In this document: in pieces, positions 1 to 11,506 of the stretch | Position numbering within the stretch: the first letter of the stretch is position 1 | Layout: every line of letters begins with the position of its first letter | IMG/VR virus record: IMGVR_UViG_2778261065_000012 | Strand: one strand, 5' to 3' | From: a virus | Lineage: Duplodnaviria > Heunggongvirae > Uroviricota > Caudoviricetes | Length of the DNA stretch: 11,506 nucleotides | Notes under the pieces: model-generated | What the model saw: the letters and a program-made list of their open reading frames with translations, nothing else | Database searches by the model: none | Told to the model about the DNA's origin: nothing | Made by a program: the position numbers and the translations under genes

Positions 1-861
1 GTCCAGCTCCTGCTGGCGGATGACGCAGGCATTATGCTCGCAGAGATAAAACACGCTGGAGGGGTCATCCGGCGTCCATTTGAGGCCAAACGGCGTCTCT
101 TTGTCGCCAAATTTAAGATACTGCTCCTCCCCGCAATGCGGGCAGGCAACATGAAAACGCATAAAATGCAGGGATTCACTGGCTGCACGCTCAATCTGGC
201 AGGTGCCTCTCACTTTGGGCGTGGAGCCACGGATGGACTTTGGCCAGACCGAGCCTTCAATACGTTTGTCGCCAAGGAACGTCGGAGAGCCTTCCTGTTC
301 AATATCCTCATCAAAGGCAGCAAGTTCATCATAACCCGCCACATCCACCGACTTTTCACGGTAGTTTTTTGCCGCTTTACCGCCCAGGCACCAGAAGCCA
401 CGACCATTGGAAAAACGCTTCATAGTGAGCGTGTTATCCCGGTGCTTTTTGCCATACCACGGAGCCAGCGCCAGCAGCGACGGAATATCGCGGATGGTCG
501 GCTCAACGTGGGTTTTCATAAAGTTCTCGGCATCACCATCCGTCGGCAACCAGATAAGGGTGTTGCGCTGCTTATGCTCTATAAAGTAGGCATAAACACC
601 CAGCAGCATTTTGGAATAACCGACACGGGCAGACTTCACCACATTCACCTCACGGATGTAGTCGCTGCCCATCGCATTCATGATGGCCCGCTGAAAGGGC
701 AGTGTTTCCCAGCGCCCTTCCTGGTATGCGGATTCTTTCGGGAGATAGTAATTAGCATCCGCCCATTCAACGGCGGTCTGTGGCTCCGGCCTGAACAGTG
801 AGCGAAGCCCGGCGCGGACAAAATGCCGCAGCCTGTTAACCTGACTGTTCGATATATTCAC
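1..861 (-). CDS. A: Terminase large subunit (lambda gpA-like), N-terminal 287 codons; gene continues beyond the window start
   Basis: Minus-strand translation from GTG at 861 reads VNISNSQVNRLRHFVRAGLRSLFRPEPQTAVEWADANYYLPKESAYQEGRWETLPFQRAIMNAMGSDYIR... and stays open to position 1, matching the lambda gpA N-terminus from memory. Start overlaps the 3' end of Nu1 by 26 nt as in lambda. The start codon is GTG here. Confidence 0.9.
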   Translation of the reverse strand, partial: MNISNSQVNRLRHFVRAGLRSLFRPEPQTAVEWADANYYLPKESAYQEGRWETLPFQRAIMNAMGSDYIREVNVVKSARVGYSKMLLGVYAYFIEHKQRNTLIWLPTDGDAENFMKTHVEPTIRDIPSLLALAPWYGKKHRDNTLTMKRFSNGRGFWCLGGKAAKNYREKSVDVAGYDELAAFDEDIEQEGSPTFLGDKRIEGSVWPKSIRGSTPKVRGTCQIERAASESLHFMRFHVACPHCGEEQYLKFGDKETPFGLKWTPDDPSSVFYLCEHNACVIRQQELD

Positions 862-1381
862 TCAGCAACCCCGGTATCAGTTCATCCAGCGCGGCTGCTT
901 TGTTCATGGCTTTGATGATATCCCGTTTCAGGAAATCAACATGTCGGTTTTCCAGTTCCGGAAAACGCCGCTGCACCGACAGGGGGAGCCCGTCGAGAAT
1001 ACTGGCAATTTCACCTGCGATCCGCGACAACACGAAAGTACAGAATGCGGTTTCCACCACTTCAGCGGAGTCTCTGGCATTCTTCAGTTCCTGTGCGTCG
1101 GCCTGCGCACGCGTAAGTCGATGGCGTTCGTACTCAATAGTTCCTGGCTGGAGATCTGCCTCGCTGGCCTGCCGCAGTTCTTCAACCTCCCGGCGCAGCT
1201 TTTCGTTCTCAATTTCAGCATCCCTTTCGGCATACCATTTTATGACGGCGGCAGAGTCATAAAGCACCTCATTACCCTTGCCACCGCCTCGCAGAACGGG
1301 CATTCCCTGTTCCTGCCAGTTCTGAATGGTACGGATACTCGCACCGAAAATGTCAGCCAGCTGCTTTTTGTTGACTTCCAT
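836..1381 (-). CDS. nohD: Terminase small subunit Nu1 (181 aa)
   Basis: ORF-track protein MEVNKKQLADIFGASIRTIQNWQEQGMPVLRGGGKGNEVLYDSAAVIKWYAERD... is recognised as lambda Nu1 / DLP12 NohD; it lies next to cos and overlaps the A start. Confidence 0.93.
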   Translation of the reverse strand: MEVNKKQLADIFGASIRTIQNWQEQGMPVLRGGGKGNEVLYDSAAVIKWYAERDAEIENEKLRREVEELRQASEADLQPGTIEYERHRLTRAQADAQELKNARDSAEVVETAFCTFVLSRIAGEIASILDGLPLSVQRRFPELENRHVDFLKRDIIKAMNKAAALDELIPGLLSEYIEQSG

Positions 1382-1964: not shown

Positions 1965-2323
1965 ACATCCCGGTTTCTTCCACCATCGCACCGGAAAAGC
2001 GACTATGAGGGTAACCCTGCGTCTGTCAGCACAGTAAAACCCGGTGTGCATCGTTTTTGATTATTCCCGCACACTCACGCAGAAGGAATTCCCCGTCGGG
2101 CTACGGTCATGGTTAATGCGGGAATACGGCGACGATACAGCGCAGCTAAAAGGGTAATGGACAGAAAGAGCGGTTTATTTCATTCCACAGGATTCTGAGT
2201 GCCCCCCTCCTCCAATAGGCTGAGCATCCACCTATATAGTTTTAATTTTCATCAATCCATTTAACTATCGTTTAATTGTTGTCACATAGGATTCTGCCGT
2301 TTTTAACAATGCAGGATAATAAG

Positions 2324-2617
2324 ATGAAAAAAATGTTGTTTTCTGCCGCTCTGGCAATGCTTATTACAGGATGTGCTCAACAGACGTTTACTGTTGGAAA
2401 CAAACCGACAGCAGTAACACCAAAGGAAACCATCACCCATCACTTCTTCGTTTCGGGAATTGGACAGGAGAAAACTGTTGATGCAGCCAAAATTTGTGGC
2501 GGCGCAGAAAATGTTGTTAAAACAGAAACCCAGCAAACATTCGTAAATGGATTGCTCGGTTTTATTACTTTAGGCATTTATACTCCGCTGGAAGCGCGTG
2601 TGTATTGCTCACAATAA
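2324..2617 (+). CDS. borD: Bor outer-membrane lipoprotein (97 aa)
   Basis: MKKMLFSAALAMLITGCAQQTFTVGNKPTAVTPKETITHHFFVSGIGQEKTVDAAKICGG... with lipobox LITGC. ATG at 2324 preceded by aggataataag; the ORF-track start at 2276 is an upstream TTG. Confidence 0.92.
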   Translation: MKKMLFSAALAMLITGCAQQTFTVGNKPTAVTPKETITHHFFVSGIGQEKTVDAAKICGGAENVVKTETQQTFVNGLLGFITLGIYTPLEARVYCSQ

Positions 2618-2648: not shown

Positions 2649-3110
2649 CTATCTGCACTGCTCATTAATATACTTCTGGGTTCCTTCCAGTTGTTTTTGC
2701 ATAGTGATCAGCCTCTCTCTGAGGGTGAAATAATCCCGTTCAGCGGTGTCTGCCAGTCGGGGGGAGGCTGCATTATCCACGCCGGAGGCGGTGGTGGCTT
2801 CACGCACTGACTGACAGACTGCTTTGATGTGCAACCGACGACGACCAGCGGCAACATCATCACGCAGAGCATCATTTTCAGCTTTCGCATCAGCTAACTC
2901 CTTCGTGTATTTTGCATCGAGCGCAGCAACATCACGCTGACGCATCTGCATGTCAGTAATTGCCGCGTTCGCCAGCTTCAGTTCTCTGGCATTTTTGTCG
3001 CGCTGGGCTTTGTAGGTAATGGCGTTATCACGGTAATGATTAACAGCCCATGACAGGCAGACGATGATGCAGATAACCAGAGCGGAGATAATCGCGGTTA
3101 CTCTGTTCAT
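2649..3110 (-). CDS. rzpD: Rz inner-membrane spanin (i-spanin), 153 aa
   Basis: [60 protein letters not shown]... is recognised as lambda/21 Rz. The ATG overlaps the endolysin stop (caATGa). Confidence 0.9.
2708..2890 (-). CDS. rzoD: Rz1 outer-membrane lipoprotein spanin (o-spanin), 60 aa, embedded in the +1 frame of Rz
   Basis: [60 protein letters not shown]: lipobox VVGC and a proline-rich segment, wholly inside Rz in another frame. Confidence 0.85.
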
Positions 3111-3604
3111 TGCTGACCCCACAAACAGATTTCACGCTCAATCTCACGACGAGTCATGAGACCTTTCCATTGCTTACCGCCAGCATATGTCCAGCGACGT
3201 AGCTGATCACATGCGCCTTTGATATCGCCCTGGTTTATTTTGCGAAGAAGCGTCGATGTTCTGAAATTGCCAGCACCCACGTTGTAAACGAATGAGTAAA
3301 GAGCGCCGCGCATTGTTTCCGGTATATCGACTTTGATGTACGGGTTAATTTGTCTGGCGACCGTGGCAAGGTCTTTATTCAGGAGGGCTTTGCATTCTGC
3401 TTTGGTATACGTTTTACCGAGCATGATGTCTTTTCCTGTATGCCCGTGACATACAGTCCATACACCAACAATATCTTTGTATGGTATGTAGCTGACACCT
3501 TCCAGACCATCGTTACCACTTGGGCCAGTGATTAACACTGATGCTATAGCAATTGCTCCGCCACCAATAGCAGCAGCAACGGCTTTTCGTAATGATGGAG
3601 GCAT
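3107..3604 (-). CDS. rrrD: SAR endolysin (phage-21-type lysozyme), 165 aa
   Basis: [57 protein letters not shown]...: Gly/Ala-rich signal-anchor-release N-terminus followed by a lysozyme catalytic region, recognised as phage 21 R / DLP12 RrrD. Start overlaps the S stop (TAATG). Confidence 0.9.
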
Positions 3605-3819
3605 TATTCACCTCTCGCAGCCTTGCGCTTATCTTCTTTAATCTTGAAATAAAGGTTTGTCAGGTACGTCAGCAGGCCAAATACCAGGCTACCCAGCACA
3701 CCTATTGCTGCCCACTGTGAGGGCGTGACTTTATCGAGCAGCTGTAAAAACCAGTAACCGGCACTACCTGCTGAGGTGCCATAGGCGACACCCGTTGTTA
3801 ACTTATCCATGGATTTCAT
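3604..3819 (-). CDS. essD: Pinholin, class II holin of the S21 type (71 aa, dual-start MKSM motif)
   Basis: [74 protein letters not shown] at 3819 preceded by gcgaggtgggg; a second in-frame Met at codon 4 gives the antiholin/holin dual start. The ORF-track start at 3864 is an upstream alternative codon. Confidence 0.88.
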
Positions 3820-4313
3820 AACCCCACCTCGCAGACAAAGCGGGTGTAAATTGAGGGAATACAACGTATCGCAAAAAAGCAGAAACGTAACAGACTCGGA
3901 GTCAGTGAATAACTCAGGTATTGAGTTATCAGCTAATATCGAGACTCAAAAAATGGAAAAACCAGCTCGACGGCGGGTTTAAGCTGTGTGACGAAGTAAC
4001 CACTCTTAACAGCATAACCAATTTTTTACGTACGTAAACCACTGAATGATATTTATGAGAATGCTACCGAGTGTTCAAAACACCACCACAAATACATAAG
4101 AAAACCTCAACAAATAACCAATAAATAATTTCCGGCGTTATTTTTAGTTAATTTAAATTAAACCACCGAATTATAGAACCCCCATAAATAACAGCCATTA
4201 ATATAAATTAGCTAATAGGTTTATTTTTGTTCAAATAAGAGCCATAAATAGGTTTCGATAGAAAAAGTTCAGATAAAAATAGAGATCTACTTCACAAATT
4301 AAATGAGAAACTA

Positions 4314-4407: not shown

Positions 4408-5505
4408 ATGAAAAAATTAACAGTGGCAATTTCTGCTGTAGCTGCATCAGTACTGATGGCGATGTCTGCTCAGGCAGCTGAAATTTATAATAAAGACAGT
4501 AACAAGCTGGATCTGTACGGGAAAGTTAATGCCAAGCACTACTTTTCCTCTAACGATGCAGATGATGGTGATACTACTTATGTTCGTCTGGGCTTCAAAG
4601 GCGAAACCCAAATCAACGATCAGCTGACTGGTTTCGGTCAGTGGGAATATGAATTCAAAGGCAACCGCGCTGAATCTCAAGGTTCCTCCAAAGACAAAAC
4701 CCGTCTTGCATTTGCAGGCCTGAAATTCGGTGACTACGGCTCAATCGATTACGGCCGTAACTACGGTGTAGCATACGACATCGGTGCGTGGACTGACGTT
4801 CTGCCAGAATTCGGTGGCGATACCTGGACCCAAACAGATGTGTTCATGACTGGTCGCACCACTGGTGTTGCAACCTATCGTAACAACGACTTCTTTGGTC
4901 TGGTTGATGGTCTGAACTTTGCTGCTCAGTACCAAGGCAAAAACGATCGTAGCGATTTCGATAACTACACCGAAGGTAACGGTGATGGCTTCGGTTTCTC
5001 TGCTACCTATGAATACGAAGGGTTCGGTATCGGTGCAACTTATGCGAAATCTGATCGTACCGACACTCAAGTTAATGCAGGGAAAGTTCTTCCTGAAGTA
5101 TTTGCTTCCGGTAAAAATGCAGAAGTTTGGGCCGCAGGTCTGAAATATGACGCTAACAACATTTACCTGGCCACTACCTATTCTGAAACCCAGAATATGA
5201 CTGTATTTGCTGATCACTTCGTTGCTAATAAAGCTCAAAACTTCGAAGCTGTTGCACAATATCAGTTCGATTTCGGTCTGCGTCCGTCCGTTGCTTACCT
5301 GCAATCTAAAGGTAAGGATCTTGGAGTATGGGGCGATCAGGACTTAGTCAAATATGTTGATGTAGGTGCAACCTATTACTTCAACAAAAATATGTCTACT
5401 TTCGTTGATTACAAAATCAACCTGCTTGACAAAAATGACTTCACTAAAGCACTCGGTGTAAGCACTGATGACATCGTTGCTGTAGGTCTGGTTTACCAGT
5501 TCTAA
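4408..5505 (+). CDS. nmpC: Outer-membrane general porin, NmpC/Lc (OmpD-family), intact 365 aa
   Basis: [40 protein letters not shown]...VAVGLVYQF: signal peptide, porin motifs ([21 protein letters not shown]-terminal YQF) and high-GC codon usage typical of a highly expressed gene. Convergent with the lysis genes, as in DLP12/PA-2. Confidence 0.92.
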
Positions 5506-5694: not shown

Positions 5695-6078
5695 TTAATT
5701 AGAGTTATTAACAACGATATCCATCTCTAACCGGATATCTAATGCCATTAACATCCCTTCAATTATGCCCTCAGCCTTCTGTAACCTTTTCCCGATATAA
5801 CCATCAGAGCAGCAATGCTTACCTGCCAGTGACATGAATGTCATACCGACTACATAATAATCTACTAATAAATCGTGCAAATCGCTGTTGTTCTTTTTCA
5901 GACGGGCCATGCACCCGCAAATGATCATCGCGTCATCGTCACAACATTGCGGGCGAGATTTTACTTTTGAAGGAATTAATCCCTTAAAACCGGCGGCAAT
6001 GGACGACCAGGTCACATCTTCATGATTATTAGCCGCCCACGCTCCCCAACGCTCAAGAACCATCTGAATATCACGCAT
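5695..6078 (-). CDS. quuD: Late-gene antiterminator Q (127 aa, small Q family)
   Basis: [62 protein letters not shown]... has a Cys cluster and the expected position between the nin region and the late/lysis region. ATG at 6078 with GGAG 10 nt upstream; the ORF-track start at 6093 is TTG. Confidence 0.8.
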
Positions 6079-6163
6079 CAACTTACTCCACAAAAATCAG
6101 ACCAGAACGCCAATTACAAGCAAAAATCAACAAAACAGTATTAGTTGATTGTTATCTCTGACT

Positions 6164-6301
6164 TCATACTCCTGCTCCTGTCAGGGTTTTGGCGTAATTC
6201 TTCAGTATTCGGTAATCGGTCAAAACAGAACCGGGGAAACGATATAAGCGCAGACGCCCCCAGCGGTGGCGAAGAAATTCTGCCATATTAAACTCAAACA
6301 T
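6164..6301 (-). CDS. ylcG: Small nin-region protein YlcG-like (45 aa)
   Basis: Hand-translated: [48 protein letters not shown] overlaps the rusA stop (TGATG), in the position of DLP12 ylcG. Below the ORF-track length cut-off. Confidence 0.55.
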   Translation of the reverse strand: MFEFNMAEFLRHRWGRLRLYRFPGSVLTDYRILKNYAKTLTGAGV

Positions 6302-6663
6302 CATTCATTCCCCATTTCGGTGATGGTCAGTTCCAGCCTCCCACCTTTGGTAACAGGCATCTTCACAACGCGGTAATCAACGACCTGAGCATCATCCAGC
6401 CAGAAACCTGCTTTAGTGAGTGCGTCAAAAGCGGCTTTTTGCAGATTATCCAGGTCACGGCGACGGCGATCCGGCATGTGGCACTCAATGCGGATTTTCA
6501 CAGGCATAGCCAGGCCGATATCCAGCATTGCGTTTTTAATGATTCGGGCGACGTTATCGCGGTATGCCTGCCCCTCTGCGCTGACGTGCGTGCGCCCGCG
6601 ATTATGGCGGTAATAGCGATTATTGCTCGGAGGCCAGGGTAATGTGATACTGTAGGTATTCAC
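6301..6663 (-). CDS. rusA: RusA Holliday-junction resolvase (120 aa)
   Basis: [93 protein letters not shown]... is recognised as RusA. GTG start overlapping the ybcO stop (GTGA). Confidence 0.93.
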
Positions 6664-6950
6664 GCCTTAATAACCCCCTCTTTCAGCCAGATAACCTGTG
6701 TTCTCGCCATACCTTCCAGCGCGCATTCTTTTGCATATGCAGCATCGACAAAATGTGTGCGGCGGTCGATTTCGTCGTGGCAGGCAGAACATGCAATGGT
6801 GGCAATCAGGTCTGGCGGTTTGATACCGGTACCGCACAATCCAGCCAGCCGGATATGTGCCAGTACAGACGTCTCAGAATTGCCATTACATACGCCAGGG
6901 ATTCTTACCTGGCATTCCCGACCACGCGCTGCTTTTCTCAAATCAGCCAT
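6660..6950 (-). CDS. ybcO: YbcO-like Cys-rich nin-region protein (putative nuclease, DUF1364-like), 96 aa
   Basis: [64 protein letters not shown].... ATG at 6950 with AGGAGG upstream; the ORF-track start at 6989 is further upstream and inside ninE. Confidence 0.8.
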
Positions 6951-7103
6951 GATTCCTCCTTGCTGCCAGTCGCAACCATTTTTTATCAACCAGGCTAGCG
7001 GTATATCCGAGCAGTGTTGGTATTTCGGATGGCTTCGGCTCAGGCTTACGCTTACGACGATTTGATACTCTGTAGATGTGTCCGTTCATGACACGAATAA
7101 GCG
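6933..7103 (-). CDS. ninE: NinE (56 aa)
   Basis: Hand-translated: [65 protein letters not shown]; 3' end overlaps the ybcO start by 18 nt. Confidence 0.8.
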
Positions 7104-7112
7104 GTGTAGCCA

Positions 7113-7568
7113 TTACGCCTCCTGCTTGTCACGGAGCAGCTGGAACTCGCAGCTCTGCGGAATAGTCAGGTGGCAGCCAATATTCACCGCCCAGGCTTCA
7201 ACCTTACACAGGAAGACATACATCTCTCCGGTATCAAGATCGGAGGTATGGCGTAACGACTGGATAGTGGTGATATCACCGGTTACGACATCAACCAGGT
7301 CTTTGGTTTCATAACCGAGATATGTGTGTTTGAGAGCATCTTTTACCCAAGCTGGAGTGGCGAACGTTTTACCCCTGTTGATGAGGTATTCACTGATTTC
7401 GCTGTACCACATGTGGCTGAGTGCATTCTGGGAAAGACTGCGTTTCTCACGCCACGGTTTAAGCACCATGCGAAAGCATTTGCCCTCCTCCAGATAAGGC
7501 TGGATCTGCCGACCGATAGCGGTGAAGTTACCGCGATGTAATTTGATGCCATCTTGTGGGAGATTCAC
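7113..7568 (-). CDS. ybcN: NinB/Orf-family recombination protein (YbcN-like), 151 aa
   Basis: [62 protein letters not shown]... carries the KRSLSQN motif like lambda NinB (RSLDQN). GTG start with GGAGG upstream. Confidence 0.85.
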
Positions 7569-7666
7569 GCTTCACCTCCGCAGAGGTCAAACGCTGGATG
7601 CAAAAAATCGCAGGTGCATCTCTGCATCTGTGAAGGGAGAAGAGAGTTTGGATTGTATGTGCGCAT
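7565..7666 (-). CDS. ylcH: Small ORF (33 aa) translationally coupled to ybcN (YlcH-like)
   Basis: Hand-translated: [41 protein letters not shown] 6 nt upstream; its stop overlaps the ybcN GTG (GTGA). Confidence 0.45.
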
Positions 7667-7764
7667 AAACGTCCCCGTTTAGCGCAGAAGTCACCGGAGT
7701 TGTTCAGGCTCCGATGACATGATTATGGCAAAATGATTATGTAAAATCAAAAGCCAAAAAACAA

Positions 7765-8694
7765 TTATGGTTTATTTTCTAGCTCTGATTTTTTGAAAGC
7801 TTCTATCAGACGATTAGCATCTTCTGTACCACCAGGAAGCACGTTTGATTTTTTAAGAATATACGGTGGGAACTTTGTGGTTAAATATTCATGCTTAAAC
7901 CATCTACGAAACTCTGACAATGCAGAATCAGGATAGGCATTAATGATCTGAGGATTGGAACTTGCCTGAAGAAAATCTTCAGGGTAATAATGCTCACAGT
8001 CTACTCTTTCTCCAAATTCTGTTGCTAACCCCTTTGCTTTCCAGTGACGCGCCCAGCAAGAACCAACACTGCCATCAGGTACGGTATGCTGATTAATCGC
8101 TAATCCAGCATTGATGAGATCTACCATCATACCTGCAATTTCATTAAATATAATGAAATACCCATCAGGTATGGTTCCCTTATCTTTTAATAAAGATACT
8201 CTGTCATGGTAATGCCTCCACGGGTCCTCCGGTTGATATTTTAGCGCCTCGTATATAAATGTCTTGAGGCCTTTTTTAGCAAGCTCTCTGTAAGATCTAA
8301 TTGCAGTCTCACTTTCTGCTTGTTTTGCTTCAAAGGCATAGTATTCAAGTATAGCCATGCATACAACATCTGGATAAGCATGGTACTCAACACCATTTCG
8401 AATTATTGGTATATAAAGTTTTTCATCTGTAAAACCTTCATTAAGAAGATATGTACCAATAAAAGTCATTCTTCCTTTTTTGAAAATACCGTTCTCAACA
8501 GATTGAGCCCACTCATCGGTAATTTCCTTGATTCGCAAACGCTGAACACCACAAACATTTGCCAACCCATTCTGAGTAAGGTACGGAATTCCGTTATCGA
8601 GTACCCCCATTTCTATACCGTTAATGACAGCCTCTTGCTTAACATCTAAGTCTAAAGGTATGGATCTGAGGGAGGTAGTTCTCTGTTGTGCCAT
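7765..8694 (-). CDS. Hypothetical protein, 309 aa, AT-rich cargo gene of unknown function; possible Bro-N/KilA-N-like N-terminal domain
   Basis: Long open frame (MAQQRTTSLRSIPLDLDVKQEAVINGIEMGVLDNGIPYLTQNGLANVCGV...) with ATG at 8694 and AGGA 7 nt upstream; the ORF-track start at 8709 is TTG. GC is roughly 25-37% in sampled 60-nt blocks, against about 50-55% in the nin genes. No catalytic motif or TM segment recognised. The N-terminal pattern D-x-G-x-P-[YW]-[LF]-x4-[LV]-A-x-V-x-G resembles Bro-N/KilA-N domains. Confidence 0.75.
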   Translation of the reverse strand: MAQQRTTSLRSIPLDLDVKQEAVINGIEMGVLDNGIPYLTQNGLANVCGVQRLRIKEITDEWAQSVENGIFKKGRMTFIGTYLLNEGFTDEKLYIPIIRNGVEYHAYPDVVCMAILEYYAFEAKQAESETAIRSYRELAKKGLKTFIYEALKYQPEDPWRHYHDRVSLLKDKGTIPDGYFIIFNEIAGMMVDLINAGLAINQHTVPDGSVGSCWARHWKAKGLATEFGERVDCEHYYPEDFLQASSNPQIINAYPDSALSEFRRWFKHEYLTTKFPPYILKKSNVLPGGTEDANRLIEAFKKSELENKP

Positions 8695-8898
8695 TTTTGA
8701 TCCTATCAATTTGAATTCATTGAAAAAATTAGGTGTTCCCTATGCATTAGAACACTCATCATAGTAACCCCACTCGTTTGTGAAAAAAACTAATTTCACA
8801 ATCAGTTAACTCTCAAAATAACTGATATTCATACTCTCGCTATCCCATATATAGACATCCTTGTTTTAATACAACACTCATGGCTGGCGGCTATACTC

Positions 8899-9216
8899 CT
8901 AACAGATTTGACGCAAATACGGCAATACTCGACTCCACTTATCATCCTGCCACGGCTGAAGTTTTACATGTGCCGTTTCTCGGACGAGGATTGCTCGCGC
9001 TCTGTTGAGTATCTGGGGATATTCTTGCTCGATGGAAGTGAAGTGACCAGCTTCACCATGCTCCGCATCCTGAAGAAGATGAGTAACGTTCTGGTAGGCA
9101 ATTAACATCACATTCCCTGCTCGCCATAACCAGGCGAGTGTGCAAAGTTCGTTATCAGTGAATTGTTTTGTGATTGGGGATTGTTGAACTGCTAGAACGA
9201 GAACGCTAGCATCCAT
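8899..9216 (-). CDS. Hypothetical protein, 105 aa
   Basis: ORF MDASVLVLAVQQSPITKQFTDNELCTLAWLWRAGNVMLIAYQNVTHLLQDAEHGEAGHF...; ATG at 9216 with AGGGA 5 nt upstream. GC is near-normal (about 47% by eye), unlike its AT-rich neighbours. No homology recognised; could be a gene remnant. Confidence 0.45.
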   Translation of the reverse strand: MDASVLVLAVQQSPITKQFTDNELCTLAWLWRAGNVMLIAYQNVTHLLQDAEHGEAGHFTSIEQEYPQILNRARAILVRETAHVKLQPWQDDKWSRVLPYLRQIC

Positions 9217-9327: not shown

Positions 9328-10854
9328 TCAAAAATAAACCTCACCATCAACCATATATTTGAGAGTACTTATCGCCTGCTGGGCGGATATTGTTTTCATT
9401 AAAGGATAGTGTTTAAAAACAATGCCATTCATAAAATAGATATCACAGGTTTTATTATCTGTATTGATTATGATTTTTTCGAATGTTTTATAGGCAAGTG
9501 TACGACATAGCTCTCGCCCATTTTTACTGGTTAAGTCAATAGCATGAAAATCACCAAGTGAGCTCACCGCTTTACTCTTCAAAGTTTTTAATGATACAGA
9601 AGCCCTTCGTAATTCCTTATCTAATACTCTGATTTTTTCTGCTATAGCGGTAACTTCAGGCGCAACAGATAATGCAGCAATTAAATTATTAATTTTCATC
9701 TGGAGCTCAATAATTTTCAACTCTAAAGTTTCATTAGCATCTTTCTTGTTTTCAACTGGTTGGATTTTACTACAATTAAAAAGCAACTCATTAATGATAT
9801 TATAATCAACCAAATCTCTCTTTATTGATGGCCTGTCACATCGATGCAGTCTTCTCATCGGACAAACATAATAGCCATGCAAACTTCCAGATACCGCATG
9901 AACAATCATGGTATTACCACAAGCCTCGCACTTCATAACTGTTCGAAGTAGATTTATCAACATAGGATTTTTGCTACTATTGCTAATACCAAAAGGTGCC
10001 AACCGAATTTCCTGCACAGCGTAAAACAAATCATCTGATATGACTCTGGGATAATAGCCAGCGATTTCACTTATTCCTTTACCTCTTGCACGATATGAAG
10101 GTACGCATATACCTATCAGAGCTTTATTCGCTAATAATTTTTCAATTACAGAAGGTCCCCATGCACTTTCTTTTCCTGAGAAATTCTTTACAGCATGATC
10201 ATTTAAATACTTGGCTATTGCATTCAATGAGCGCCTTTCCATCCTGAGTTTAAAAATTAGCTCAATAGTTTTCACCCTGTCGGGGTCTGGAACAAAAGCC
10301 GTTCTTTTGTCATCTAAGGAGAGCCATCTCGGACAAGACGCCGTCATAATCGTGCCTGACTCCAGTGCATCCTGCCGTTTTTTCTTCCATGATAATTTAA
10401 CCCGACTTGACTTTATCTCGCTTTCTTCATTTGCCCTTTGTGCTATAAGTATGGCTTTTATTAATGAATATGGATCATTCAAAGAGTCAATATTATAGAC
10501 TGTATTATCGCAAAGAGTTATAACATCAATACCGTGATTCAAAATCAATTTCAGACGCTCAATCGCTTCACCGACTTTTTCTCTTGAAAGTCTGTCCAGA
10601 CTTTCAACTAACAATGTAGTTCCTGGCAATATATAACCATGCTCTATAGCATCTAAAAATTCCGAAAAAGCTCCTGATTGTGCATGCTTTCCTTTGAATG
10701 CACTTAATCCTAAATCTTCATATGTTATGGTATCAAGATAATAATCACTATTTACCTTTAACCATTCAGCAATAAGTCTTCTCTGTCGGTTTAATGAGTC
10801 GCCAGACATCTGACCTGGTGATGAAAATCGCATATATGCTATGGCTTTTTTCAT
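9328..10854 (-). CDS. ybcK: Large serine recombinase (508 aa; resolvase-type catalytic domain, recombinase domain, Cys4 zinc ribbon, coiled-coil)
   Basis: N-terminal AIAYMRFSSPGQ... has the serine-recombinase catalytic Ser motif; CEACGNTMIVH...YYVCPMRRLHRCDR is a Cys4 zinc ribbon; C-terminal region is heptad-like (LELKIIELQMKINNLIAAL). ATG at 10854 with AGGTG upstream. AT-rich (about 35-38% GC). Same size and position as DLP12 YbcK, next to emrE. Confidence 0.88.
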   Translation of the reverse strand: MKKAIAYMRFSSPGQMSGDSLNRQRRLIAEWLKVNSDYYLDTITYEDLGLSAFKGKHAQSGAFSEFLDAIEHGYILPGTTLLVESLDRLSREKVGEAIERLKLILNHGIDVITLCDNTVYNIDSLNDPYSLIKAILIAQRANEESEIKSSRVKLSWKKKRQDALESGTIMTASCPRWLSLDDKRTAFVPDPDRVKTIELIFKLRMERRSLNAIAKYLNDHAVKNFSGKESAWGPSVIEKLLANKALIGICVPSYRARGKGISEIAGYYPRVISDDLFYAVQEIRLAPFGISNSSKNPMLINLLRTVMKCEACGNTMIVHAVSGSLHGYYVCPMRRLHRCDRPSIKRDLVDYNIINELLFNCSKIQPVENKKDANETLELKIIELQMKINNLIAALSVAPEVTAIAEKIRVLDKELRRASVSLKTLKSKAVSSLGDFHAIDLTSKNGRELCRTLAYKTFEKIIINTDNKTCDIYFMNGIVFKHYPLMKTISAQQAISTLKYMVDGEVYF

Positions 10855-11110: not shown

Positions 11111-11443
11111 TTAATGTGGTGTGCTTCGTGACAATAAATTAATAACCAACACACCGGCACAAATCAACATCATGCCTATAATGGCTGGCAGGTCCAGCCG
11201 TTGGCCGAAAAATCCCCATGACAGTAAGCTAATCAGGACAATACCGACTCCTGACCAGATAGCATAAGCAATCCCTGTAGGAATATAAGCCAGCGTCTGA
11301 GCTAATAACCAGAATGATGCACAATAACAAATAATTGTACCAACAGATGGCCATAACCGTGTAAAACCTTCTGAAAACTTCATTAAGGTTGTACCAATGA
11401 CCTCTGCAAGTATTGCACCACCAAGATAAATATAAGGGTTCAT
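11111..11443 (-). CDS. emrE: EmrE small multidrug resistance (SMR) efflux transporter, 110 aa
   Basis: MNPYIYLGGAILAEVIGTTLMKFSEGFTRLWPSVGTIICYCASFWLLAQTLAYIPTGIAYAIWSGVGIVLISLLSWGFFGQRLDLPAIIGMMLICAGVLVINLLSRSTPH is recognised as EmrE, including the conserved membrane Glu in EVIGTT. ATG at 11443; the ORF-track start is an upstream alternative. Confidence 0.93.
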   Translation of the reverse strand: MNPYIYLGGAILAEVIGTTLMKFSEGFTRLWPSVGTIICYCASFWLLAQTLAYIPTGIAYAIWSGVGIVLISLLSWGFFGQRLDLPAIIGMMLICAGVLVINLLSRSTPH

Positions 11444-11506
11444 AGTAGACTGGCCCCCTGAATCTCCAGACAACCAGTATCACTTAAATAAGTGATAGTC
11501 TTAATA

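Follow-up and report, generated by a model that had tools for sequence, protein, structure and literature searches.

What is the function of the AT-rich 309-aa open reading frame that lies between the nin region and the serine recombinase gene ybcK of this prophage? The window, which is the whole 11,506-nt stretch of DNA analyzed here, is a segment of a DLP12-like lambdoid prophage, read in reverse. We describe the ORF and the slot that it occupies, the family to which its product belongs, the DNA around its start codon, and the role that these suggest.

The reading frame and its slot

The ORF is uninterrupted and has its own ribosome-binding site and ATG, as the initial annotation had described.

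7765..8694, minus strand: bstA coding sequence, 309 aa from the ATG, with the stop codon at 7765-7767
8701..8704, minus strand: Shine-Dalgarno-like AGGA, 7 nt before the bstA ATG, read directly from the sequence

If translation began at an in-frame TTG at 8709, the protein would be five residues longer; this is unlikely, because the homologues begin at the methionine equivalent to the ATG at 8694. The GC content of the ORF is 38.9%, and 60-nt blocks span 27-50%, so the earlier estimate of roughly 25-37% was too low. The same annotation was right that the GC content is well below that of the nin genes (ybcN, 50.2%; ninE-rusA, 51.8%); ybcK, with 36.1%, is similar. The protein has no hydrophobic segment, with a maximum Kyte-Doolittle 19-residue mean of 1.47, in agreement with the absence of a membrane segment noted previously.

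The gene map of the window was drawn from the ORF list, a Pfam scan, and the annotation of near-identical genomes.

1-861, minus strand: N-terminus of the terminase large subunit, open throughout
836-1381, minus strand: nohD
2276-2617, plus strand: bor/iss-type lipoprotein gene
2649-3864, minus strand: Rz, lysozyme, and holin
4408-5505, plus strand: intact porin gene (nmpC/ompC-like, 365 aa)
5695-6093, minus strand: Q
6301-7568, minus strand: rusA, ybcO, ninE, and ybcN
between ybcN and bstA, minus strand: ylcH-like mini-ORF
7752..8900, minus strand: swapped-in cassette, in which lineage-specific upstream DNA (about 157 nt) is followed by the candidate aba, by bstA, and by a few bases past the stop
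8899-9216, minus strand: 105-aa ORF, a P22AR_C fragment
9328-10854, minus strand: ybcK, large serine recombinase
11111-11473, minus strand: emrE

Since the minus strand of the terminase gene is open, the packaging genes are kept here, and they have been lost from K-12 DLP12. A plus-strand ORF of 255 aa at 34-801 is the antisense shadow of the terminase large subunit. The porin gene, which is split by IS5 in K-12, is intact in the window.

The slot itself was delimited by comparing the interval from ylcH to ybcK across genomes. The homology common to the slot variants ends at about position 7751 of the window and resumes at 8901 (9289 in K-12), and thus the bstA cassette is about 1,150 bp long. 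K-12 DLP12 has ybcL and ybcM in this place, between ybcK and ylcH/ybcN, in agreement with the initial annotation. Strain STEC379 has a gene for a 260-aa hypothetical protein (WP_001348590.1), and two other strains have one for a 169-aa hypothetical protein (WP_000990013.1); both proteins could be further defense cargo. The slot between ybcK/P22AR_C and ylcH, compared in the window and in loci L004, L005, L006, and L007, is therefore a sharply bounded exchange site. This bears out the earlier view that the slot is variable and that the gene in it is cargo acquired separately. In strain GN04592, a gene for a DUF4041 protein (L007 5915-7417) stands in place of emrE-ylcJ-ybcK, and the P22AR_C gene is full length. 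The same locus has a second ylcH-like segment of 104 nt (L007 5503-5606), 89% identical to window 7583-7686, upstream of the P22AR_C gene. The presence of this second segment hints that repeated ylcH-like sequences may mediate the cassette exchange.

The 105-aa ORF next to bstA has a P22AR_C domain (E = 7.6e-14) and aligns to residues 100-198 of the 202-aa P22AR_C protein of GN04592 with 82% identity. By this alignment it is a truncated antirepressor remnant, apparently cut where the emrE-ylcJ-ybcK module was inserted. It had been suggested that this neighbor might act together with the 309-aa ORF. We reject it as a partner of BstA: only the C-terminal half is present, the counterpart beside the identical bstA of NCTC8623 is a pseudogene with an internal stop, and the ORF is found beside ybcK in many genomes without bstA.

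Membership of the BstA family

Pfam-A and NCBIfam scans gave no significant match for the 309-aa protein; the Pfam copy used evidently does not contain PF26567. When the Pfam-A scan was relaxed to E ≤ 1, the sole match was crAss_CARG1 with E = 0.16, and the KilA-N, Bro-N, ANT, and P22_AR models were unmatched. Phage and defense profiles gave a very different result. The profile phrog_6287, 'BstA abortive infection system, replication inhibitor', matches residues 5-308 with E = 1.8e-136, covering profile positions 2-303 of 304, and the PADLOC profile for BstA (PDLC02356) matches with E = 3.6e-121. A tblastn search against phage genomes aligned residues 3-308, 99% of the length, with BstA of phage BTP1 (st313-td) at 40.0% identity. 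Furthermore, a large protein search returned 1,250 homologues, nearly all with a precomputed PF26567 (BstA_C) assignment, and the cluster identical to the window protein carries PF26567 as well. UniRef and newer RefSeq entries use the names 'BstA C-terminal domain-containing protein' or BstA-like C-terminal domain. Thus, the C-terminal 200 residues, previously regarded as unassigned, have a family name. An alignment of the window protein with 44 homologues has 62 invariant columns.

Owen et al. 2021 (PMC8585504) defined BstA as a prophage protein that gathers at the replicating phage DNA of the invader, blocks its replication, and aborts the infection. Their Table S1 catalogues 72 BstA homologues, including one in E. 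coli NCTC8623 at LR134234:4557005-4557922. In RefSeq, this interval encodes WP_000068668.1, which is 100% identical to the window protein. The gene order in NCTC8623, emrE-ylcJ-ybcK-P22AR_C-[309 aa]-ylcH-ybcN-ninE-ybcO-rusA, is also that of the window, and nothing of substance differs between the two. By these matches, the gene, the family, and even the exact protein are already on record. The ORF had been put forward as a candidate for an undescribed function; this claim fails because of the confident full-length match to a characterized phage protein.

We also asked which of the E. coli alleles is present in the window. The experimentally studied E. coli protein, BstA-Ec of strain NCTC10963 (E4V89_RS07420), belongs to the same family and is from the same species, and both its defense and its own cognate aba have been demonstrated (PMC8585504). 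The sequence of the BstA-Ec cloning primer given in that paper is found upstream of a 301-aa homologue in strain 2012C-4431 (L002). We rejected the identification of the window allele with BstA-Ec, since the cloning primers are absent from the window and the protein of 2012C-4431 is only 38% identical to the window protein. Not being BstA-Ec, the window allele is, by its identity to the NCTC8623 entry, a catalogued third E. coli bstA lineage.

The prophage carriage of the gene agrees with this assignment. The window holds lambdoid nin, Q, lysis, and terminase genes, and identical bstA genes are found inside complete-looking lambda-like prophages. Hochhauser et al. 2023 (PMC10121019) placed bstA in lambda-like E. 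coli prophages at hotspot #32, at the tRNA-Arg location, and the tRNA-Arg prophage arrangement with bstA is also seen in strain 2016C-3878. We conclude that the product of the 309-aa ORF is very probably an abortive-infection protein of the BstA family, and that the gene is cargo of a DLP12-like lambdoid prophage.

An AlphaFold2 model of the window protein, built with 45 homologues, has a mean pLDDT of 84.7 and a pTM of 0.65. The model shows an N-terminal beta/alpha domain at about residues 17-150 and a helical C-terminal BstA_C domain at about residues 155-300; residues 1-12 have pLDDT below 50 and are predicted to be a disordered tail. BstA of BTP1 (STMMW_03531, from a Salmonella phage; PMC8585504) is like the window protein in its two-domain layout, in its carriage by a prophage, and in its length, 307 vs 309 aa. 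A Foldseek search of the model against the PDB gave nothing significant, with no match below E = 0.18, and a PDB sequence search gave chance-level matches only. Against viral models, Foldseek found weak matches to HTH, antirepressor, Bro, and KilA-N proteins, the best with E = 3e-5 and a TM score of 0.37, restricted to about 80-120 residues of the protein. The C-terminal domain had no structural or functional relative by PDB sequence search or by Foldseek of the PDB and the viral models.

Could the protein then be a KilA-N/Bro-type antirepressor or prophage regulator, which binds DNA or a repressor to control the induction of its own or a co-resident prophage, and not a defense protein? The resemblance of the N-terminal domain to KilA-N/APSES/Bro-type DNA-binding folds points this way, as do a match of residues 25-150 to the generic HTH model of PADLOC (E = 2e-08) and the antirepressor fragment in the adjoining ORF. 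However, the full-length match to BstA includes the BstA_C domain, which antirepressors do not have, and the Pfam models named above gave no match. The neighboring fragment is unrelated and occurs with other slot contents. BstA differs from the KilA-N, Bro-N, and APSES domains known from phage antirepressors and eukaryotic viral proteins in possessing a C-terminal domain of its own and in the role demonstrated for it. We therefore regard a purely regulatory protein as extremely improbable. The KilA-N label for the N-terminus of BstA comes from the HHpred analysis of PMC8585504, and the weak fold matches of the model are consistent with that assignment. The KilA-N-like character that had been read from the first 50 residues thus has some support from these fold matches, although no KilA-N or Bro-N profile recognizes it.

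For the BstA-family protein, abortive infection is the most likely function, as judged by homology. In PMC8585504, three homologues that are mutually only about 40% identical all gave defense, which makes it reasonable to extend function by homology to the window allele. The block of replication, the abortive-infection phenotype, and the aba function that we ascribe to this allele are all inferred in this way. The initial annotation had guessed at anti-phage defense among other roles for the slot, and the full-length BstA match makes this the most likely one. RexAB of lambda, with which BstA was compared in PMC8585504, is likewise prophage-encoded abortive-infection cargo in a lambdoid mosaic hotspot. 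However, RexAB has no homology to BstA, is a two-protein membrane-depolarizing system located between cI and N, and, unlike BstA, has no known DNA-based self-immunity element.

A candidate aba element and the spacing of its repeats

The aba element of BTP1 is a 63-bp sequence that spans the bstA start codon, has CCCGCC direct repeats at its ends, and gives cognate self-immunity (PMC8585504). The mapped element covers positions -29 to +34, and its CCCGCC copies, at -28 and +28, are 56 bp apart. In the BstA-Ec-type locus of 2012C-4431, the two copies of ATCCCTNCA, at -34 and +23, are separated by 57 bp. The window has a comparable but weak pair at the same position.

8673..8740, minus strand: candidate aba, 68 bp, spanning the start codon from -46 to +22 relative to the A of the ATG, positioned as in BTP1 aba
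8731..8740, minus strand: repeat copy 1, GGGAACACCT, in non-coding DNA
8673..8684, minus strand: repeat copy 2, AGAGAACTACCT, in codons 4-8 (QRTT), which encode part of the disordered N-terminal tail

The spacing from GAAC to GAAC is exactly 57 bp, and the two copies match at 8 of 12 positions in register, the 3' half being offset by 1 nt. There is no exact 6-mer direct repeat across the window start codon, and the pair is seen only with the help of relatives and with mismatches allowed. Like BTP1, then, the window has a candidate pair of direct repeats flanking the bstA start codon at a spacing of 56 or 57 bp. The repeat sequence differs, CCCGCC in BTP1 vs GAAC(N)ACCT in the window (GAACNACCT), as is expected for cognate aba specificity.

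The relatives of the window locus preserve the motif. The sequence GGGAACACC(C)TA is kept upstream of bstA in L028, L032, L009, L008, L029-31, and L038-L054, where the surrounding upstream DNA has otherwise diverged. The motif and the 57-bp spacing recur in Klebsiella-type, Lonsdalea, Xenorhabdus, and Morganella loci and in IMG/VR contigs. Furthermore, the DNA homology of the window to its relatives with 90-92% protein identity starts at about 8741, which is at repeat copy 1. The conserved mobile unit thus consists of repeat, start codon, repeat, and gene.

The spacing was then evaluated across the family. One hundred bstA loci were anchored on the conserved MGVL codon and reduced to 64 non-redundant loci, and the best 10-nt direct repeat with a spacing of 30-90 bp was taken from the 190 nt upstream of the anchor. 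A spacing of 57 bp is sharply preferred: it is found in 25 of the 64 loci, with half of them (32/64) at 55-58 bp. Since the loci share ancestry, they do not represent independent observations. Measured from the MGVL anchor, the two copies are at about -128 and -71, which corresponds to the place of the mapped repeats of BTP1 aba. In 100 dinucleotide shuffles, the top count at any single spacing averaged 5.7 (maximum 10), and for 55-58 bp together the shuffles gave 3.3 loci on average and at most 8. When a coding region of the same bstA genes was used as a control, 3 loci had 57 bp. The repeat sequences vary from lineage to lineage, but the two copies are more alike within a locus than between loci, with a mean of 9.2/12 in-register matches vs 7.0/12, and at least 10/12 matches in 42% of loci vs 4% between loci.

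Taken alone, the window pair is not beyond chance, because the between-locus control reaches at least 9/12 in 12% of comparisons; the support comes from the orthologous position and motif in the relatives. By the same in-register measure, the proven aba of BTP1 scores 7/12, and many relatives score 10-12/12. On the strength of the relatives, we designate 8673-8740 as the candidate aba of the window bstA. For the family as a whole, we lean slightly toward a common aba architecture, in which two lineage-specific, co-varying direct repeats of 8-12 bp would be separated by 56-57 bp, or about 5.4 helical turns; the first copy would precede the ribosome-binding site, in non-coding DNA, and the second would fall within the codons of the disordered N-terminal tail. 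Neither the 2021 paper and its supplements nor the later searchable papers were found to describe such an architecture, which is not proof of novelty; on BstA mechanism or aba architecture, the literature search yielded only the 2021 paper and the pan-genome survey of 2023.

Two further features of these regions may be mentioned. In many loci (L010-L112, about -128 to -60 from MGVL), an A-rich pattern 'ATCAA ... TTAG/TAGG' lies between the repeats, immediately ahead of the ribosome-binding site; in the window it reads TTCAAATTGATAGG. It could represent either a conserved inner portion of aba or a signal for translation. In many alphaproteobacterial homologues of about 340 aa (P0040, P0045, and P0050 among them), an N-terminal extension of about 40 residues is annotated. 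Since the extension would put the upstream repeat inside the annotated ORF, either these starts are annotated too far upstream or aba can be wholly coding.

Genomic position, expression, and proposed role

The window bstA is not located directly downstream of the prophage repressor. In BTP1, bstA directly follows the cI repressor gene, and in 2012C-4431 the BstA-Ec-type gene directly follows a LexA-family cI repressor gene, between cI and N. By contrast, the window-type bstA precedes the nin region; about 5.5 kb, with ren, P, O, emrE, and ybcK, separate it from the repressor gene. The repressor-adjacent position is common ('in many cases') but not defining for bstA (PMC8585504). That position is believed to give constitutive expression. 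The closest relatives outside E. coli, IMG/VR contigs with 90-92% protein identity, likewise carry the gene where the nin region starts, with the order dATP/dGTP pyrophosphohydrolase, bstA, NinB, NinG in L044. A Morganella relative with 69% identity directly follows a cI-type repressor in three different prophages. By these positions, the sub-clade of the window has moved from the usual cI-adjacent site to the pre-nin cargo slot.

Genes at least 99% identical to the window bstA are present in 110 of 5,426 complete E. coli genomes, and all copies are chromosomal. In strain W284, which is 99.5% identical over the window, the same module is in a prophage beside icd and not at tRNA-Arg; the bstA-bearing module thus travels. 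The major capsid gene of the W284 prophage is split by a satellite-like insert of about 11 kb (L114 3372-14029), with genes for an integrase, AlpA regulators, a TIR-domain protein, a primase, its own capsid and decoration proteins, and a DUF262+HEPN pair. From its gene content, the insert looks like a capsid-forming phage satellite with its own defense genes.

How is the gene expressed in its new position? Because bstA is not directly downstream of the cI repressor gene, it probably needs either its own promoter or read-through from emrE/ybcK. One upstream candidate is weak.

8758..8786, minus strand: sigma-70-like site TTTTCA-17-TATGAT, 64 nt upstream of the bstA ATG, a weak candidate promoter

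The promoter and terminator scan of the region gave no signal above shuffle expectation, with 5 sigma-70-like sites observed vs 4.8 expected, and a 'terminator' at 7626-7609 falls inside the ylcH-like ORF. The genes emrE and ybcK are upstream of bstA on the same strand, with no predicted terminator in between.

It might be supposed from these results that the BstA homologue is silent or functionally decaying here, that is, that it has been moved away from the cI promoter, that its aba has slipped out of register, and that it gives no native defense. The distance from the repressor gene and the chance-level promoter and terminator scan are what such a gene would show, as is a repeat pair of 8/12, when many relatives reach 10-12/12. 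Disrupted copies exist as well: one E. coli copy (H54, NZ_AP045737.1) is split by IS1, and P0039 is a variant shortened to 187 aa, from which it appears that bstA is sometimes lost. The host prophage is also damaged in some strains, as by the split capsid gene of W284. However, the ORF is intact and at least 99% identical in about 104-110 genomes from varied hosts, and the proven BTP1 aba scores even lower than the window pair. The 90-92% relatives share the pre-nin position in intact-looking phage contigs, which looks like a stable habit of the sub-clade and not an accident, and the upstream arrangement of emrE and ybcK would permit read-through. Loss of function in the window is therefore improbable, and we retain the reading of a BstA-family abortive-infection protein.

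The proposed mechanism follows that of the tested homologues (PMC8585504). The lysogen would produce BstA, and on infection by an unrelated phage the protein would gather at the replicating phage DNA and stop its replication. The infected cell would die without the release of progeny, so that the population is protected. The aba element across the bstA start codon, when amplified, would neutralize only the cognate BstA, and the prophage would thereby spare its own lytic replication. In the window, these functions would be carried by the cassette of about 1.15 kb at the head of the nin region, between the truncated antirepressor gene and ylcH/ybcN.

The ORF and its more than 100 identical copies, many of which are 'hypothetical protein' in RefSeq, should be annotated as BstA, and bstA marks a defense-cargo slot heading the nin region of DLP12-like prophages. 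If the repeats are the specificity determinants that are read by the cognate BstA, then aba specificity would be predictable and re-programmable from sequence, and GAAC(N)ACC(C)T would define a specificity class peculiar to the pre-nin sub-clade of the window. How a prophage distinguishes its own replicating DNA from that of an invader was left open by the original paper, and the 57-bp architecture may give a concrete, testable way into this question.
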